Source: a virus (lineage: Duplodnaviria; Heunggongvirae; Uroviricota; Caudoviricetes). Taken from it: 11,390 bases of DNA. Positions 3,086-9,233 of this stretch are shown here, piece after piece (the stretch's first letter is position 1; the number at the start of each line of letters is the position of its first letter). Made by a program: the position numbers and the translations under genes. The notes under the pieces were generated by a model, which saw nothing but the letters and a program-made list of their open reading frames with translations, ran no database searches and was not told the origin of the DNA. The DNA lies in IMG/VR virus record IMGVR_UViG_2690316028_000012; one strand, given 5' to 3'.

Positions 3086-3919
3086 ATGAACATCGAAAAA
3101 AGCAGATTAATTTCTGAGGCCGCCCCTCATCTGAACGCCTATCAGGGCACAATTAACGGTAATGAATTTGCCGCAATTGTCCCGGTTATTCCTGGTCATA
3201 TCGGTGGGCGTGAAACCAATATTGTTAGCGCAAAAGCGTTACACAAAGCGTTGGGCGTGGGAAAAGACTTCTCTACATGGATCACTGATCGCATCTCTGA
3301 ATATGACTTCACCATTGGGCACGATTACTCAGTCCATAAAACAATTTCCCCAAATCTGGGGAAAAGCCCGAATGGCACGGCTTACAGCAAGATTAAACAG
3401 TCTGGCAGACCCGGCAAAGACTATCTGTTAAGTGTCGGAATGGCGAAAGAACTGGCGATGGTCGAACGCACCGAACAGGGCCGCGCTATCCGCCGTTATT
3501 TCATCCAGTGCGAGGAAGAATTACAGCGTAGCGTGCCTGAAATCGCCGCCCGCTATCGTCGCCAGCTAAAAGCCCGTATCGGTGCCGCCAACCTGTTTAA
3601 ACCGATGTGCGTAGCGCTGGAAAGCGCCCGCGCAGAACAGGGTAAACAGACGCAGGCTCGCCACTACAGCAACGAGAGCAACATGATCGCCCGTATCGTG
3701 CTGGGTGGCATGACGGCGAAGCAGTGGGCGCAGGCAAATGGCATTACTGGCGAACCACGGGACAGCATGAACGCAGCACAGCTTGAACACCTCGCCTATC
3801 TCGAAAGCACCAATATCACGTTAATTGATATGGGCATGGAATATGAGCAGCGCAAAGGAGAACTCACCCGCCTGTCGCAACGCTGGCTCGCTAAACGTCT
3901 GGAGGTAAACCATGCGTAA
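3086..3919 (+). CDS. Phage antirepressor-like protein with N-terminal AntA/AntB-type domain
   Basis: 277-aa ORF. N-terminal segment SAKALHKALGVGKDFSTWITDRISEYDFTIGHDY resembles the AntA/AntB antirepressor domain consensus as recalled; not searched. Confidence 0.65.
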   Translation: MNIEKSRLISEAAPHLNAYQGTINGNEFAAIVPVIPGHIGGRETNIVSAKALHKALGVGKDFSTWITDRISEYDFTIGHDYSVHKTISPNLGKSPNGTAYSKIKQSGRPGKDYLLSVGMAKELAMVERTEQGRAIRRYFIQCEEELQRSVPEIAARYRRQLKARIGAANLFKPMCVALESARAEQGKQTQARHYSNESNMIARIVLGGMTAKQWAQANGITGEPRDSMNAAQLEHLAYLESTNITLIDMGMEYEQRKGELTRLSQRWLAKRLEVNHA

Positions 3920-4094
3920 CCACAATCCGATGCCGGGAAGCCGTTACAAGGACAGTCACGGGGCTGTAGTGACCGTACAGCGCGTCGAGCATAACCGTGT
4001 GACCTTTTACCGCGAGGGCTATCAGTCGCCATGTGTTCAGCCTTTGGAGAGATTCGTTAATGAGTTCGTGGAGGTGCGCCGTGATACTGAATGA
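3912..4094 (+). CDS. Small hypothetical protein (possibly the DUF4222-like small prophage protein family)
   Basis: 60-aa ORF. Start overlaps the upstream stop in ATGCGTAA, with GGAGGT 5 nt upstream. The family assignment is from memory only. Confidence 0.5.
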   Translation: MRNHNPMPGSRYKDSHGAVVTVQRVEHNRVTFYREGYQSPCVQPLERFVNEFVEVRRDTE

Positions 4095-4381
4095 ACCTGC
4101 CGCCCAGAAAGAAGCCTTTAATCTGGCTGGCATGTTGTCAAAAGTTGACATCTGCAACCTTACAAAACCTGATATTGATACCGCAGCGCCCGGAGTTCCG
4201 TTACCAGTACGCGAGGCGCTTACCCTCAACAAAAAGATGGTGAGCCGTGCACAGGAAAAACTCTTAAAGGGTTACGGTTTTATCTGGTATGACCACCTAG
4301 CAGAGAAAAGCTGTTATAGTCCAAGCGTTGCTGCAAAATCAGCAACCGGGATTGGAACCCCGAACACACTAAGGGCGACAC

Positions 4382-4404
4382 AGACGCCGAAAGCGTCTTT
4401 TTTT
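4382..4404 (+). terminator. Candidate intrinsic terminator inside the operon
   Basis: Stem AGACGC (4382-4387) / GCGTCT (4393-4398), loop cgaaa, followed by a run of seven T to 4404. Confidence 0.5.
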
Positions 4405-4593
4405 GTGTCCGATCACCACGCACATCAAATCAGCGGCCTTGCCCGTACTGTATCTATGGTGGCGTTAGTGGGGCTACGTTCGCGTAGGCCGGTTTCCTTT
4501 GTGTCCGGTAGTTCCAACCCTGCTAACGTCACCGCCACTATTAAGATTGGAACCTTATGCGGTGACTCCTTAAACACAAAGGAGGCTGCCATA

Positions 4594-4785
4594 ATGGCTA
4601 CTACCCCAACCCAAAAACCATCATTTATCTGGTTAATCGCAGCAGTTCGCCGCGATATGCCGACAATTACCGCCAAAATTCACCATATCGCCGCAGAGAC
4701 TGAGCAGGAAGCCCGCCGCATTCTGGCGCGGGATCACGTTTGCTTTTTTGCCGGACGTATTCGCACAGGGGGCGCACATGCTTAA
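4594..4785 (+). CDS. Host cell division inhibitor Icd-like protein (63 aa)
   Basis: Strong RBS aaaggagg 8 nt upstream of ATG 4594. Product MATTPTQKPSFIWLIAAVRRD...EQEARRILARDHVCFFAGRI resembles Icd-like proteins as recalled. The tracker's 250-aa ORF 4033..4785 is the same frame running on upstream with no credible start. Confidence 0.6.
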   Translation: MATTPTQKPSFIWLIAAVRRDMPTITAKIHHIAAETEQEARRILARDHVCFFAGRIRTGGAHA

Positions 4786-4957
4786 TTACTTCCGTGTTGC
4801 AGGATGCGCCACCGCCCGGAGCGGCGAATTAGTCGAGTTCGTTTATATCGTTGACGCCCGCAGCGCGATCAGCGCCAAAGCTGAGGCGCTAAATCAGGCC
4901 AGAAATGAACGCCTTTCCCACATCCAGATTACCCGCATTCGTGAGGTGGCAGCATGA
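4778..4957 (+). CDS. Small hypothetical protein (59 aa from ATG 4778; tracker ORF begins at 4748)
   Basis: ATG 4778 overlaps the Icd-like stop (ATGCTTAA). Its own stop overlaps the next start (ATGA at 4954). Confidence 0.4.
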   Translation: MLNYFRVAGCATARSGELVEFVYIVDARSAISAKAEALNQARNERLSHIQITRIREVAA

Positions 4958-5217
4958 ACATAAATACCATCTACCGCCACCCGGCAGAGCTGGAAGCCGA
5001 AGCGATGCTATCTCGCAAAGAATCATACCCGGATGATTTTACGCTGGCAGACCGAACAGCAGAACGCATGACCCGCGCCCGCAATGGGCTGGATCACGTT
5101 ATGACCGATTTATTACCACTCCTCGAAGTTGAGCAAGCAGCCATCGCGTATTGCTGGCTGAGTAAAGTCCTGACGATTGTCGATATAGCCAGAATTGATG
5201 CGGAGGGCAGCGCATGA
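4954..5217 (+). CDS. Hypothetical protein (87 aa)
   Basis: ATGA start/stop overlap with genes on both sides, co-oriented in the operon. Confidence 0.5.
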   Translation: MNINTIYRHPAELEAEAMLSRKESYPDDFTLADRTAERMTRARNGLDHVMTDLLPLLEVEQAAIAYCWLSKVLTIVDIARIDAEGSA

Positions 5218-5840
5218 GCAACGCACCGACCATTAAATCGGGAAATGCCGACTTATTACACGCCGAAGCCACACCGCACGGCGTCAATATCATGACCCGC
5301 AATGATGCCGGGGGATATGAGCAGGTTGCTCTTATCAGCTACGAGAGCGCCGTGAACGGCCTTGACGCCGGAGAGTACGACGATAAGCCAGATATCGGAT
5401 ACGCCATTCATTTTGCCGTTGCTGATGGCGGGGCGCGTGGCTGGTTCGACTTCACCGCGCAGCATAACGTCACTATGTGGCGCTGGCTGATTGCTGCGAC
5501 GTTCATTTCTGAGATGAAGCGCGAAAACGGCACAACCACGGTAACTGAGTCTGACGGCACTTCATCGCAGGTGGCGATTTACTCCAATGGCACGGCGGGG
5601 ATTGTGGTTTACCCGTTCGCTGAACGTCTGGCGATGGCTAACAACATGGATGGCGCAATGGTTGAGCGCTACGGCATTGAGCAGGGAACAGCGAACGCCA
5701 TTGTTTTTTATCAGGCCATGATCGACACGGAGCGCGGCGAGTTGACCCCGTTTGGGCGTGAAACGCTTGCTGAACTTCACAACAGCTTTATAGCTGAACT
5801 GGATGAAAACGGCTGGCCTGAAATGCCGCTGGCGCACTGA
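5214..5840 (+). CDS. Hypothetical protein (208 aa)
   Basis: ATGA overlap with the upstream gene; long ORF with ordinary codon usage. No motif recognised. Confidence 0.6.
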   Translation: MSNAPTIKSGNADLLHAEATPHGVNIMTRNDAGGYEQVALISYESAVNGLDAGEYDDKPDIGYAIHFAVADGGARGWFDFTAQHNVTMWRWLIAATFISEMKRENGTTTVTESDGTSSQVAIYSNGTAGIVVYPFAERLAMANNMDGAMVERYGIEQGTANAIVFYQAMIDTERGELTPFGRETLAELHNSFIAELDENGWPEMPLAH

Positions 5841-5849
5841 GGGAGCGAC

Positions 5850-6191
5850 ATGATTACTAAAAATTTCCGACTGAATGCGCTGGCGAATAAGTATGCGTCG
5901 GCACTGTATAACCACATTACCTCCACCAGCGGCGGGGACTATTTCATGGTTGATGCGGACGGCCTCGCCGTCCGTGTGGAAATCGTCAATGGAGTAAAAG
6001 GCGTTCGCAGCCTGATCGATAGCTACACACTGGCAGCCATGAAAGTGTTCTACCCGCAGTGGGAAACCGTGGGGATCGAGCTTCTTGATCGTTGCGTCAC
6101 TAAGGACGGATTGACTGACGTCGGGCGCGAGATATGGCAAAGCATGATTAATGATATGGGCGCGACCGTGGCAGGAGGCAACCATGCGTAA
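5850..6191 (+). CDS. Hypothetical protein (113 aa)
   Basis: RBS gaggga upstream of ATG 5850. Stop overlaps the primase start in ATGCGTAA. Confidence 0.55.
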   Translation: MITKNFRLNALANKYASALYNHITSTSGGDYFMVDADGLAVRVEIVNGVKGVRSLIDSYTLAAMKVFYPQWETVGIELLDRCVTKDGLTDVGREIWQSMINDMGATVAGGNHA

Positions 6192-8949
6192 TATCGACCT
6201 TATCCGCGAAGTGACCAGCGCCGCAGCAGGGCGCTGGCCTTATGTGCTGGCTGGATTGTCTATCGACGTGCCTGATTCATCGCGCCGCCATTCTCCATGC
6301 CCTGCATGTGGTGGAAAAGACCGTTTCAGATTCGACGACAACGGGCGCGGTAGCTTTATCTGCAACCAGTGTGGCGCTGGTGACGGGCTGGATTTAATCA
6401 AGCGGGTTAACAACTGCGACACTACGGAGGCGGCACAGCTTGCCGCTGACGTGCTGGGTATTGATTACCAGGCAGCGCAAACCGACCCGGTGGCAGCGAG
6501 CCATAGAAGAGAGCAACTGGAAGCTGACCGCCAGCAGCGTGAGCAGGAGCGCCAGAAACAGGCAGCAGAGGACGCAGAGCAGCGAAGGGCTACGTTTGCC
6601 CATCTGTATGCCGGAATGCGCCAGAGTGCCACACAGGGCGAATCTGATTACCTGCAATCAAAAGGGCTGACCGGGTTTAACTATCCGGTTATGCCGGATG
6701 GTTCGTTATTGCTGGAGCTGGTGGACGAATCCGGCGCAGTGGCAGCAGCGCAAACCATTACACCGCAGGGAGAGAAGCGACTCCTGACAGGTTCAGCAAA
6801 GCGCGGGGCATATCACGCCGTAAACGCGCCAGAATCGCCGCAGAGCGTTTTAATTGCCGAGGGGCTGGCAACCGCTTTATCAGTCCACCTGATGCGCCCT
6901 GACGCGCTGACAGTGTGCGCCATTGATGCGGGCAACCTGCTACCCGTTGCCGAAGTGATGCGCCGGATATATCCAGCCACGCAGATTATCATTGCCGCAG
7001 ATAACGACCACCAGCAGGACGAACAGGCGAACACGGGCAAAGATGCCGCAGAGAAAGCCGCCTTATCCGTGGCTGGCTGGGTGGCACTGCCGCCGACAGA
7101 CTACAAAGCCGACTGGGACGACTACCGCCAGCAAAACGGGCTGGAAGTCGCTACGGCTGCGTTTAACGATTCGATGTACCAGATTCAAGGGGAAGCCGTG
7201 AAACCGCGATTGCAAGCCATTGAGGGCGGTAAAACTGACCATCCAGAGAAAGATCCACTAAAACCCCACATTGAGAGCCGCAAAGATGGCGTTTTCTGGG
7301 TAACGCCGAAGGTGGACAAGGAAAGCGGGGAGATCGTCAACGCTGAAAGCTGGTTATGTTCCCCGTTGGAGGTTATCGGCACGGGACGCGACGACAAAGA
7401 TCAGTATCTTATTATCTCATGGCTGGCATTCGGTGCAGGCATACCGACAACAGCGGCTATCCCGCTGGCTGATATTGGCGAGCGTGAAGGCTGGCGCACC
7501 CTGAAAGCTGGTGGCGTCAACGTCACAACGAAAAACAGCCTACGGGCGATTCTTGCCGACTGGTTACAGCGAAGCGGCTCGCGTGAATTGTGGCGCGTTG
7601 CTCATGCTACAGGCTGGCAGTGCGGGGCATACATCATGCCGGACGGGGAAATCATCGGCACACCTGAGCGGCCTGTTTTGTTCAGCGGGCGCAGTTCAGC
7701 CGCTGCCGGGTATACCGTAGCAGGAACGTCGGAAAGCTGGCGTAACAGTGTTGCGCGGCTGGCATACGGTAATTACGCGATGATGACAGGCATCGCCGCA
7801 GCACTGGCAGCGCCATTAATCGGGGTGGCAGATCGTGACGGATTCGGGATTCATTTTTATGAGCAATCGAGCGCCGGGAAAACAACCACGCAGAACGTGG
7901 CGAGCAGTCTATACGGCAACCCTGATGCCTTGCGCCTGACGTGGTACGGGACGGCGCTGGGGCTGATAAACGAGGCCGCCGCCCACAATGACGGGCTGAT
8001 GCCACTGGATGAAGTCGGACAGGGCGCTGACCCGATAAGCGTTTCTCAGTCTGCCTATGCCCTGTTTAACGGCGTGGGGAAATTGCAGGGAGCAAAGGAA
8101 GGAGGCAACCGGGATCTGAAACGCTGGCGCACCGTGGCAATCAGCACCGGGGAAGTGGACTTAGAAACCTTCATCGCCACCGCCGGACGCAAGACCAAAG
8201 CCGGGCAACTGGTGCGCTTGCTGAATATCCCGTTAAGTAAGGCGGTGCGCTTTCATGAACACCAGACAGGGAAAGAACACGCCGACGCGCTGAAAGATGC
8301 TTATCAGCACCATCATGGCGCTGCCGGGAGGGAGTGGATCAGATGGCTTTCAGACCACCAGCAACAGGCGATTGATGTCGTTCGTGAGTGTGAAGCCCGC
8401 TGGCGCAGTCTAATCCCTGCCGACTATGGGGAACAGGTTCACCGTGTAGGGGCAAGATTTGCCATTCTGGAGGCCGCTTTACTGATGGGTGGCGTGGTTA
8501 CTGGCTGGGATGCTCAAACGTGCCGGGATGCGATACAGCACGCCTATAACGCATGGCTAAAAGAGTTCGGCACGGGGAACAAAGAGCACCAGCAGATCAT
8601 CGAGCAGGCGGAGGCATTTTTAAATGCCTATGGCCTGAGTCGATTCGCGCCGCTGCCTTACGACCCCGCCAGCCTGCCGATTCATAATCTGGCTGGATAC
8701 AGGCAGCGCGGAAATCATGACGATTCACCGATAACGTTTTACACGTTCCCCGACACTTTCGATAAGGATATTGCTAAGGGGTTTAACAGGCAGCAGGTGG
8801 CCCGCGTCCTGAAAGAATCGGGGATGCTTACCCCTTCGGCAGACGGAAAAAAATTTCAGAGGAAAAGCCCGCGCATTCAGGGGAGGCAGATTAACGTTTA
8901 CGTTTTGCAATTCCTGCCGGATGGGGAGGAAAGCCAGCCAGAGCAATAA
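6184..8949 (+). CDS. Replication primase-helicase (P4 alpha-like: zinc-ribbon + TOPRIM primase + DUF927/D5-type NTPase)
   Basis: Start placed at ATG 6184 (AGGAGG 5 nt upstream) rather than the tracker's 6151. C4 zinc ribbon CPACGGKDRFRF...FICNQCG. TOPRIM motifs LIAEGLATALS and IIIAADNDHQ. P-loop-like YEQSSAGKTT and Walker-B-like LMPLDEVG in the C-terminal half. Confidence 0.9.
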   Translation: MRNIDLIREVTSAAAGRWPYVLAGLSIDVPDSSRRHSPCPACGGKDRFRFDDNGRGSFICNQCGAGDGLDLIKRVNNCDTTEAAQLAADVLGIDYQAAQTDPVAASHRREQLEADRQQREQERQKQAAEDAEQRRATFAHLYAGMRQSATQGESDYLQSKGLTGFNYPVMPDGSLLLELVDESGAVAAAQTITPQGEKRLLTGSAKRGAYHAVNAPESPQSVLIAEGLATALSVHLMRPDALTVCAIDAGNLLPVAEVMRRIYPATQIIIAADNDHQQDEQANTGKDAAEKAALSVAGWVALPPTDYKADWDDYRQQNGLEVATAAFNDSMYQIQGEAVKPRLQAIEGGKTDHPEKDPLKPHIESRKDGVFWVTPKVDKESGEIVNAESWLCSPLEVIGTGRDDKDQYLIISWLAFGAGIPTTAAIPLADIGEREGWRTLKAGGVNVTTKNSLRAILADWLQRSGSRELWRVAHATGWQCGAYIMPDGEIIGTPERPVLFSGRSSAAAGYTVAGTSESWRNSVARLAYGNYAMMTGIAAALAAPLIGVADRDGFGIHFYEQSSAGKTTTQNVASSLYGNPDALRLTWYGTALGLINEAAAHNDGLMPLDEVGQGADPISVSQSAYALFNGVGKLQGAKEGGNRDLKRWRTVAISTGEVDLETFIATAGRKTKAGQLVRLLNIPLSKAVRFHEHQTGKEHADALKDAYQHHHGAAGREWIRWLSDHQQQAIDVVRECEARWRSLIPADYGEQVHRVGARFAILEAALLMGGVVTGWDAQTCRDAIQHAYNAWLKEFGTGNKEHQQIIEQAEAFLNAYGLSRFAPLPYDPASLPIHNLAGYRQRGNHDDSPITFYTFPDTFDKDIAKGFNRQQVARVLKESGMLTPSADGKKFQRKSPRIQGRQINVYVLQFLPDGEESQPEQ

Positions 8950-8975: not shown

Positions 8976-9233
8976 GGTGGTTCAGGTGGTTCAGGTGGTT
9001 CAGTAAGTAATTGTTATTGATTTATAATGTTTTTTTGTAAGAAATTGAACCACCACTGAACCACCAAACGGGTATTTTGAACCACCAGAGAGAAACGGAT
9101 TATTTTCACTGGCTGGCAGTGAACCACCAAGAAGGGCGACTGAACCACCAGATAAATTTAAAAGGTGGTTCAGCAAAACCCAGAGTTGGCGCGGCCTAGA
9201 GGGGTACTGAACCACTGAACCACCTGAACCACC
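8976..9233. repeat. Iteron cluster (GGTGGTTCAG / CTGAACCACC, ~12 copies in both orientations) flanking an AT-rich segment; probable replication origin
   Basis: Forward copies at 8976, 8985, 8994 (tandem, 9-bp period) and 9164. Reverse copies at 9046, 9056, 9078, 9120, 9140, 9207 (partial), 9216, 9225. AT-rich stretch at 9004-9046. Sits immediately 3' of the primase gene. Confidence 0.8.

Follow-up and report, generated by a model that had tools for sequence, protein, structure and literature searches.

A stereotyped, putative translational-coupling joint at mosaic gene boundaries of an EcCIMP1-like phage satellite

Genes, RNAs and kind of the element

The window, that is, the whole stretch of 11,390 nt analysed here, carries in order int, AlpA, AntA, a P1-like C4/Icd module, small ORFs, primase, origin repeats, SSB and PerC. 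According to Pfam, the integrase, the AlpA regulator and the primase/replicase with its adjacent origin are all in one orientation, and the features described below all lie on the plus strand. The antirepressor gene antA (3086..3919) encodes an AntA-family protein of 277 aa (Pfam PF08346, E = 1.8e-21; PHROG anti-repressor Ant), and its last six codons hold the RBS and the start codon of the following gene. This gene (3912..4094) encodes a 60-aa DUF4222 protein (PF13973, E = 1.4e-22) of the subfamily starting with MR[N/E/K]. It is followed by a long open frame (4081..4785) whose GTG start follows a GGAGG at 4070-4074, and which spans the RNA genes and ends in an Icd-like domain (NCBIfam NF033153, aa 182-229, E = 1.9e-19). 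RefSeq annotates ORFs equivalent to this long frame, and the frame upstream of the Icd ATG is open for at least 450 nt in 30 of 41 relatives; a possible stand-alone Icd/ash start lies at 4594. The P1-immI-like RNA block (4314..4539) has Rfam matches above the gathering score for c4-a1b1 targets (4314-4366, 53.6 bits), isrK (4327-4403, 74.6 bits) and the C4 antisense RNA (4452-4539, 82.1 bits). By-eye comparison pairs the C4 loop with ACACAAAGGA at about 4574-4583, shortly before the Icd start.

Further downstream lie three small ORFs without a function match or any match in Pfam, o59 (4778-4957), o87 (4954-5217) and o208 (5214-5840), linked by ATGA overlaps; the 208-aa ORF is matched by PHROG phrog_1515. 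Then comes the 113-aa ORF (o113, 5850..6191; PHROG phrog_37628), whose 3' end, ...TVAGGNHA*, holds the RBS and the start codon of the primase. The primase/helicase (6184..8949, 921 aa) has a zinc ribbon, Toprim and DUF927 by Pfam, and 12 copies of the origin repeat TGAACCACC stand at 8976-9233. Searches of Pfam, NCBIfam and PHROG gave no function for o59, o87, o208, o113, o144 and o321, and those of Pfam and PHROG found no structural or lysis genes in the window.

What kind of element is this? The window is a predicted PICI-type phage satellite of the EcCIMP1 kind. It shares the order int, AlpA, antirepressor, Ash/Icd, primase, PerC with EcCIMP1 and other Gram-negative PICIs (PMC11773190; Fillol-Salom et al. 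2018, PMC6092414). The antA 3' end matches positions 3,582,390-3,582,576 of E. coli MP1 at 91% identity, and these positions fall in the stretch given for EcCIMP1 and the adjacent island (PMC11773190). Induction and packaging by a helper phage have been demonstrated for EcCIMP1 only, with helper Kapi1 (PMC11773190). The two differ downstream of the primase: origin repeats, SSB, PerC and a pRiA4b-ORF3-like gene stand there in the window, DUF2824 and ejection-protein genes in EcCIMP1-like relatives. Integration sites of relatives are next to yicC or at the tRNA-Thr adjoining proA. The window also resembles the immI region of P1 and P7 in having a C4 RNA, a1/b1 target sites, an Icd-like domain and an antirepressor gene together. 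Of the marks of a P1-type immI, the C4 RNA, the a/b targets and a downstream icd are all present in the window, and an antirepressor downstream of icd under C4 control is absent from it. In P1/P7 the antirepressor stands downstream of C4/icd, while AntA here stands upstream of the RNA block. Also unlike P1/P7, the isrK-like RNA of the window overlaps the a1/b1 targets, and the long open frame crosses the RNA genes.

Two near-identical joints

Two gene junctions of this element are nearly identical. The junction of antA and DUF4222 (J1, 3901..3919) reads GGAGGTAAACCATGCGTAA, and that of o113 and primase (J2, 6174..6191, 18 nt) reads GGAGGCAACCATGCGTAA, both read directly from the sequence. In J1, GGAGG (3901-3905) is followed by the spacer TAAACC, the DUF4222 ATG at 3912 and the antA TAA at 3917-3919; in J2, GGAGG (6174-6178) is followed by CAACC, the primase ATG at 6184 and the o113 TAA at 6189-6191. 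Thus at both places co-directional ORFs have an 8-nt stop/start overlap (3912-3919 and 6184-6191), and a GGAGG site inside the upstream ORF precedes the ATG by 6 nt in J1 and by 5 nt in J2. The two differ by one T/C substitution and one single-base indel, and their GGAGG parts are out of register by 1 nt. The upstream proteins end in ...VNHA* (antA) and ...GGNHA* (o113), while DUF4222 and primase both begin with MRN. In all these points, the RBS-start-stop overlap, the substitution and indel, and the shared NHA and MRN termini, the original prediction is borne out by sequence and translations, except that it had the second copy start at 6173, one base before its actual start.

Is the resemblance more than chance? 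The exact 12-mer AACCATGCGTAA is common to J1 and J2 and has no other site in the window. Only 0.05 occurrences are expected in shuffled sequence, and two or more were seen in 0 of 200 shuffles. The repeat is therefore real and non-random under this naive model. Within the element family, the probability that two 8-nt-overlap joints of different gene pairs have this 12-mer in common is about 0.001. When antA ends and o113 ends were re-paired among the 17 loci having both, there were three matches (P = 0.01); the window and locus L004 form one lineage, hence with lineages counted once there are two independent matches, and P(>=2) = 0.13. Given the shared joint design, then, the likeness of J1 and J2 is only weakly surprising.

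Two other roles for the joints were considered. The RNA around them is less structured than shuffled sequence (z = +1.9 for J1 and +1.6 for J2), and a hairpin that hides the RBS in order to enforce coupling was rejected. The joints are also disfavoured as targets of the C4 or IsrK RNA; in the by-eye comparison the C4 loop pairs elsewhere.

Mosaic breakpoints and the idea of an excisable cassette

J1 and J2 are major mosaic breakpoints. The antA 3' end was matched in 618 E. coli genomes, with homology crossing J1 in only 103; the o113 end or primase start was matched in 369, and only 76 cross J2. In evenly spaced samples of 30 records, 23 of 30 alignments break at 3905/3906, the last base of GGAGG or the next one, and at J2 20 of 30 stop at 6178 while two start at 6184. 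Compared with locus L002, the window has 93% identity to the left of J1 and 61% to the right, and 95% to the left of J2 and 31% to the right. A block of about 90 nt over J2 is 100% identical between genera, with flanks of 76-86%, which hints at extra constraint or a recent recombination patch. At gene boundaries of other form, those with ATGA overlaps or short gaps, homology breaks with about the same frequency.

Do the two joints then act as direct repeats that recombine with each other? The original prediction suggested that they can, so that the 2.3 kb from DUF4222 to o113 moves as a unit and leaves a single hybrid joint. The exact 12-nt repeat, unexpected under the naive null, would fit such a scenario, as would the location of both joints at exchange boundaries, with homology breaking at 3905/3906 and 6178/6184, and the varying content between them; elements with CTGGAGGTAAACCATGCGTAATATCGA would speak for it. 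The segment is swappable in that its genes vary strongly among relatives, but they vary one by one rather than as a 2.3-kb unit: DUF4222, Icd/ash, o59, o87, o208 and o113 are gained or lost singly. The gene behind antA is replaced or absent with the joint design retained in L008, L033 and E. coli NH-21, the last of which lacks DUF4222 alone and joins antA directly to the long Icd ORF. Relatives with primase directly after the antirepressor did not turn up in any of the collections searched. A chimeric query of antA 3' and primase 5' ends gave no contiguous match in any of 5,426 E. coli genomes, there was no such joint among 78 loci from other species, and the degenerate pattern CTGGRGGNNNNNCATGCGTAAYATYGA had 0 matches in 241 million metagenome records and 2.9 million viral contigs, although the metagenome collection holds at least eight natural antA-to-DUF4222 joints of the satellite family. 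The positive-control pattern used on the metagenomes was too loose, and the matches listed for it were mostly unrelated environmental contigs. The reciprocal joint, o113 to DUF4222, is likewise missing among the catalogued joints.

The sequences themselves also argue against recombination between the joints. Efficient RecA-dependent recombination in E. coli is usually quoted to need roughly 25 bp or more, and the exact repeat of 12 nt is well under this length. As read from the sequence, the spacers are unequal by 1 nt, so that a crossover in GGAGG would fuse antA and primase in frame. The one natural deletion found in the region, in E. coli VE-T10, used a 3-nt microhomology elsewhere and not the cassette. 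Together with the likeness arising from conserved termini and joint design, this speaks against repeated linkers mediating exchange of the module. Cassette excision is rejected on the missing antA-to-primase product in the genome, metagenome and viral searches; the direct-repeat scenario is already largely refuted, and we hold it to be very improbable. The original prediction is thus partly supported: the joints mark single-gene exchange boundaries and are not a repeat pair excising a 2.3-kb module.

A joint design used throughout the satellite family

There is a further question, why the two joints look so much alike if they do not recombine. In about 90 related loci there are 193 RBS-bearing joints with an 8-nt overlap, between dozens of unrelated gene pairs; without pattern-selected loci the count is 177 joints in 73 gene-family pairs, 26 of these using ATGCGT. 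The commonest form is ATGCGTAA (61 of 193), and the consensus has G at positions -11, -10, -8 and -7 (72-90%) and A or G at -9. Among the 8-nt-overlap gene families 30% have CGT as codon 2, against at most 6% in other junction classes. A third joint of the same design, GGGGGCGCACATGCTTAA, stands in the window itself between the Icd/ash ORF and the 59-aa ORF (4768..4785), and in relatives the Icd/ash 3' joint opens into more than 15 different downstream gene families. The antA 3' end is CTGGRGG-N5-CATG-NN-TAA in 31 of the 32 relatives with a full-length antA match, and its design is kept before several unrelated downstream genes. In the same way, the MR[N/E/K] start of DUF4222 is kept behind several upstream genes, non-antA ones included. 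The o113 3' end is conserved across genera, with 24 o113-to-primase joints of the 8-nt design, and the gene after o113 differs from primase in L002 and L013. The primase start ATGCGTAAT (MRNIDLIR) is near-invariant whatever gene stands upstream, ATGCGTAAT ATC GAC being identical behind o113, o208, alpA, ash or DUF4222; a comparison of start sites in 70 loci gave ATGCGTAATATCGACCTTATCCGC as kept at the nucleotide level.

These counts bear on pure coincidence, a similarity with no shared design behind it. The repeat is short, and the match is not strongly significant under family-aware permutation, but related loci show the design about 190 times, and its strong position-specific consensus makes such an accident scarcely credible. 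The resemblance of J1 and J2 therefore reflects shared constraints.

Which constraints might these be? We consider it likely that J1 and J2 are two instances of a stereotyped, putative translational-coupling joint used throughout the EcCIMP1-like PICI satellite family. The last codons of the upstream gene encode a strong RBS (GGAGG or GGGGG), followed by a spacer of 5-6 nt; the downstream ATG lies in the penultimate codon of the upstream gene (C-ATG, read as His), and codons 2-3 of the downstream gene supply the upstream stop (NNT-RAx). Ribosomes ending antA or o113 would terminate 5 nt past the next AUG and may re-initiate there; alternatively the strong site may capture fresh 30S subunits. 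Either way, a long early operon would be kept evenly translated. A strong unstructured RBS could also initiate independently of upstream translation. In this reading ATGCGTAA is the intrinsic conserved start of the primase (MRNIDLIR) and of the DUF4222 subfamily (MRN/E/K), and the identity of J1 and J2 beyond GGAGG and ATGCGTAA comes down to the 4-nt AACC of the Asn-His codons. Conserved gene ends and a joint design common to the whole family thus appear to account for the similarity, rather than duplication of a linker. As RBS, start and stop fill the last ~19 nt of the upstream gene, viable allele swaps break in register at the joint, and breakpoints therefore accumulate at GGAGG|spacer.

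Another explanation is that a portable standard joint travels with the genes and is kept because recombination by short homology or microhomology shuffles genes in register, J1 and J2 being alike by shared descent or homogenisation. Near-identical joints (19-mers with 0-3 differences) do connect unrelated genes; for instance, GGGGGTGAACCATGCGTAA follows antA in L033 and another gene in L051. ATGCGT, found in 26 of the 73 family pairs, is specific to 8-nt joints, related loci have almost as many overlaps of 8 nt as of 4 nt (117 vs 163), breakpoints fall exactly at GGAGG, and an AATC variant occurs in both joints of L008. However, 11 of 19 positions are already set by RBS, ATG and stop. E. coli prefers both the Ala codon GCG and the Arg codon CGT, and ATGCGTAA may thus be no more than the optimal sequence for coding in two frames. 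Breakpoints are about as frequent at boundaries with ATGA overlaps or short gaps, the co-variation is weak with lineages counted once (P about 0.13), and selection on viable recombinants would by itself lead to the same accumulation of breakpoints. We regard this explanation as rather unlikely. The excess of ATGCGT and the AATC in both L008 joints are not fully explained by translation constraints, and shared descent of the joints or their homogenisation may play a part; homogenisation within an element is suggestive in L008, not robust. In a stronger version, which we hold to be unlikely and a little more doubtful still, the SD-N5/6-C-ATG-CGT-RA joint would be a family-wide in-register 'plug' travelling with genes, its uniformity owed to shared descent, to homogenisation or to selection for exchangeability. 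If so, any gene could be spliced behind any other by microhomology recombination with stop and coupling preserved, and PICI satellites would have a built-in grammar for single-gene shuffling rather than a by-product of translation.

Similar boundaries are known from other systems. Conserved sequences, called boundary sequences or linkers, stand at the mosaic module junctions of lambdoid phages, a subject that takes in Susskind and Botstein's modular theory and the boundary sequences reportedly discussed for HK620, HK97 and HK022. Two models for them are summarised in PMC3974807. As in lambdoid phages, homology in the satellites switches exactly at gene boundaries and short similar sequences adjoin unrelated genes, but in contrast the common sequence is itself a predicted translation initiation and termination signal, and it is only 12-19 nt long. 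For this reason, constraint and selection on viable recombinants may suffice without targeted homologous recombination. The joints also resemble cases of termination-reinitiation coupling (Huber et al. 2019, PMC6728339; review PMC12548453) in being co-directional, with a start within a few nt of the stop, an RBS in the upstream coding sequence and conservation across orthologues. Those cases are mainly overlaps of 4 nt (ATGA) and 1 nt, while the putative coupling joints of the satellites are 8 nt (ATGNNTRA) with ATGCGTAA dominating.

On the reading we prefer, that of an ordinary putative translational-coupling joint at mosaic boundaries, no new mechanism is revealed and the idea of cassette excision can be dropped. 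For annotation, it would account for the endings ...EVxHA, ...GGxHA or ...VNHA and the beginnings MRN or MRK of many small satellite proteins: these terminal residues would be encoded by the RBS, start and stop of the joint and not reflect protein function. The breakpoints, confined to the 5-6 nt between RBS and start codon, give a clean and quantified case in several hundred E. coli genomes, useful in the long-standing debate on whether recombination is targeted to linkers or is random, with selection acting afterwards. A scan of IMG/VR for the cassette gave 11 matches, of which three are J2 of the satellite family; the others are unrelated genes ending in ...GGNHA* or similar, in a number compatible with chance for a collection of this size.

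The two joints and the element that carries them

J1, the joint between antA (3086-3919, + strand) and DUF4222 (3912-4094, +), reads GGAGGTAAACCATGCGTAA and lies at 3901-3919. J2, the joint between o113, a 113-aa ORF (5850-6191, +), and the primase gene (6184-8949, +), reads GGAGGCAACCATGCGTAA and occupies 18 nt at 6174-6191, one base later than the start at 6173 of the original prediction. At both joints TAA ends the upstream ORF and ATG opens the downstream ORF. AntA ends in ...VNHA* and o113 in ...GGNHA*, while DUF4222 and primase both begin MRN, and the near-identical overlaps of ribosome-binding site, start and stop that had been noticed at the two junctions, with their NHA ends and MRN starts, are confirmed from the sequence. 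An exact 12-mer, AACCATGCGTAA, is common to J1 and J2 and is found nowhere else in the window; 0.05 occurrences are expected in shuffled sequence, and two or more copies appeared in 0 of 200 shuffles. A third joint of like design, GGGGGCGCACATGCTTAA, is located at 4768-4785.

What kind of element carries these joints? On the + strand, the gene order starts with integrase (1-1260), directly after whose stop comes an int-alpA RNA motif (1269-1335; Rfam, 60.6 bits). Then follow, on the same strand, an uncharacterised ORF, AlpA (2436-2639), a 144-aa ORF, the AntA antirepressor, DUF4222, a P1-immI-like block of c4-a1b1 targets, isrK and C4 RNA (4314-4539), an Icd-like domain (up to 4785), four small ORFs, a zinc-ribbon/Toprim/DUF927 primase and, after a repeat array, SSB and PerC. 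The array, at 8976-9233 between primase and SSB, holds 12 copies of TGAACCACC in both orientations (11 exact, one with one mismatch; 2.2 expected from shuffles), and is probably the replication origin of the satellite. E. coli relatives of the element are integrated beside yicC or at the tRNA-Thr adjoining proA. The antA end matches DNA within EcCIMP1 of E. coli strain MP1, a PICI whose induction and transfer by phage Kapi1 were shown experimentally and whose gene set is the same as that of our element (PMC11773190). From this match and the common gene set, the element is classed by its sequence as a PICI-type phage satellite. On the 3' side of primase, four EcCIMP1-like relatives (L001, which is E. 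coli VE-T10, L002, L214 and L215) carry genes for DUF2824 and P22-type ejection/injection proteins; SSB, PerC and a pRiA4b-ORF3-like gene take their place in the window.

Gene ends and gene starts within a common design

Why are the two joints so alike? The comparison covered several E. coli loci as well as 78 from other Enterobacterales. The primase start is almost everywhere ATGCGTAAT ATC GAC CTT ATC CGC (MRNIDLIR), and it stays the same behind o113, o208 (a 208-aa ORF), alpA, ash or DUF4222. Therefore ATGCGTAA of J2 belongs to the primase gene; GGCAGGAGGCAACC, just before it, is the conserved o113 3' end. Over the first 24 nt of primase, most of the closer relatives show full identity or only 1-3 differences, synonymous sites included. 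The antA 3' end is ...CTG GRG GNN NNN CAT GNN TAA, giving a C-terminus ...KRL(E/G)(V/A)xHx*, in 31 of the 32 relatives whose antA hit is full-length. The gene behind it always starts at the embedded ATG, but its identity varies: various DUF4222 alleles, the Icd-long ORF and other, unrelated genes occupy this place. One DUF4222 subfamily begins MR[N/E/K], also behind genes other than antA. In L002 (13757-14128) and L013, two related loci, an additional 123-aa ORF entered via GGGAGGTTCTCATGCGTGA stands between o113 and primase, so that a gene other than primase follows the o113 3' joint.

To describe the design across the family, every ATGNNT(AA/GA/AG) at which one long ORF ends and another begins was catalogued. 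Across about 90 loci, 193 such joints have a ribosome-binding site (177 once the pattern-selected loci are set aside), and they link 73 different gene-family pairs. By far the commonest octamer is ATGCGTAA (61/193), and ATGCGT is used by 26 of the 73 pairs. The upstream proteins end in ...EVxHA*, ...GGxHA* or ...GVxHA* because the consensus is (A/G)GG(A/G)GG-T-G-n-n-(C/T)-C-ATG. Overlaps of 8 nt are nearly as frequent in these loci as those of 4 nt (117 vs 163). RNA folding around J1 and J2 is weaker than in shuffled sequence (z = +1.9 and +1.6), and both look like open, efficient initiation sites.

Conserved gene ends that meet in a stereotyped joint, at which coupling is predicted, explain the J1-J2 similarity. 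Ribosomes would terminate 5 nt beyond the next AUG and re-initiate there, as the coupling literature suggests; alternatively, the strong ribosome-binding site may recruit new subunits. By either route, translation along the early operon would stay even. The overlap geometry, ribosome-binding site, conservation, open RNA structure and breakpoint positions come from our analysis, and the proposed mechanism draws on what is established about coupling between overlapping genes (PMC6728339, PMC12548453). The joints are a fresh example of phenomena already known.

How surprising is the match? The probability of a 12-mer common to two joints of different gene pairs is about 0.001. When the real antA-end and o113-end sequences were re-paired among the 17 loci having both, the 3 observed J1-J2 matches (window, L004 and L008) gave P = 0.01; the window and L004 belong to a single lineage, and for two or more matches P = 0.13. 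Beyond the ribosome-binding site, ATG, TAA and the conserved Arg codon, the identity consists of AACC only. In L008 the antA joint GGGGGCGAATCATGCGTAA (5136-5159) and the o113 joint GGGGGCAATCATGCGTAA (7985-8008) have an AATC variant in common and are one indel apart, the same relation as between J1 and J2. The L008 record is titled Chryseobacterium sp., and the contig may be a contaminant, since the locus has 83-92% protein identity to enterobacterial elements.

Exchange at single gene boundaries

A search with the whole window matched 994 E. coli genomes, none of which covers at least 80% of it, with 3905/3906 or 6178 as the end point of many alignments. Breakpoints at the two joints were counted in E. 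coli genomes with 400-nt probes. Around J1, 618 genomes match and only 103 continue through; of 30 evenly sampled alignments, 23 end at 3905/3906. Around J2 the numbers are 369 and 76, with 20 of 30 sampled alignments ending at 6178 and 2 of 30 beginning at 6184. Between the window and L002, identity switches directly 3' of GGAGG from 93% to 61% at J1, and from 95% to 31% at J2; L003, another related locus, shows the opposite at J2 (34% left, 98% right). Breakpoints are about as frequent at other gene boundaries (ash/o59, o87/o208, the Icd start and the SSB start, o59 and o87 being small ORFs of that length in aa). J1 and J2 are genuine mosaic boundaries, at which single genes are exchanged. 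A viable swap would have to break in register, within the few nt between a functional upstream protein end and a downstream start, which would explain the pile-up of breakpoints at joints.

Does the segment between J1 and J2 move as one? The original prediction took the joints as repeats bracketing a swappable 2.3-kb cassette, and expected relatives with primase directly after the antirepressor. Neither the reading nor its specific prediction is supported. Genes between alpA/antA and primase come and go singly: the minimal relatives L018 and L052 have alpA and then primase 127 nt on, L039 has DUF4222 joined to primase, and E. coli NH-21 is without DUF4222 only, its antA being joined straight to the Icd-long ORF via GGGGGCTAATCATGCTTAA. 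Alignment of relatives did give a joint of this design retained with its neighbour gene changed (NH-21). For an antA-to-primase joint, a chimeric query had no match covering at least 80% of its length in 5,426 E. coli genomes, 0 of the 78 loci from other Enterobacterales had one, and a degenerate junction pattern gave 0 matches in metagenome and viral collections, where natural antA joints are present. The only natural loss of this region found is a deletion of about 1.16 kb in E. coli VE-T10 (L001 12890-12990), with 3 nt of microhomology, outside J1/J2. It took the antA 3' end, DUF4222, the RNA block and most of the Icd/ash ORF, and the truncated antA is flagged as a pseudogene in RefSeq. Because the J1 spacer is one base longer than that of J2, crossing over within GGAGG would yield an in-frame antA-primase fusion; a clean deletion product would be possible only via crossover in the 12-mer.

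Over a block of some 90 nt that spans J2 (o113 3' end and primase 5' end, window 6130-6230), the window has 100% identity to L009, L011 and L007, loci from Kosakonia and Scandinavium; the flanks are just 76-86% identical. Might the uniform joint also promote recombination, as in the old linker idea of a uniform boundary sequence doing so (summarised in PMC3974807)? This identical block in other genera would fit, as would the AATC co-variation of the antA and o113 joints in L008 and the CGT excess at codon 2 of 8-nt joints (30% of 8-nt-overlap gene families vs at most 6% in other junction classes), yet we consider it improbable.

A long frame through the RNA genes

One open frame spans 4081-4785: it opens with a GTG that follows GGAGG (4070-4074), crosses the genes for the isrK and C4 RNAs and ends in the Icd-like domain. 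Its RefSeq equivalents are 'Icd-like' or 'ash family' proteins of 234-355 aa, and the frame 5' of the Icd ATG is open for at least 450 nt in 30 of 41 relatives (median 615 nt). Either ribosomes read through the isrK/C4 genes, or some constraint would keep the frame open. 'c4 repressor' is a historical name. PHROG 'transcriptional repressor' and 'regulator' families match 4306-4623 (aa 76-181 of the long ORF; phrog_6928, E = 1.7e-29, and others), mainly over the stretch encoding the isrK and C4 RNAs, and these protein families may have been built from translations of a conserved RNA gene.
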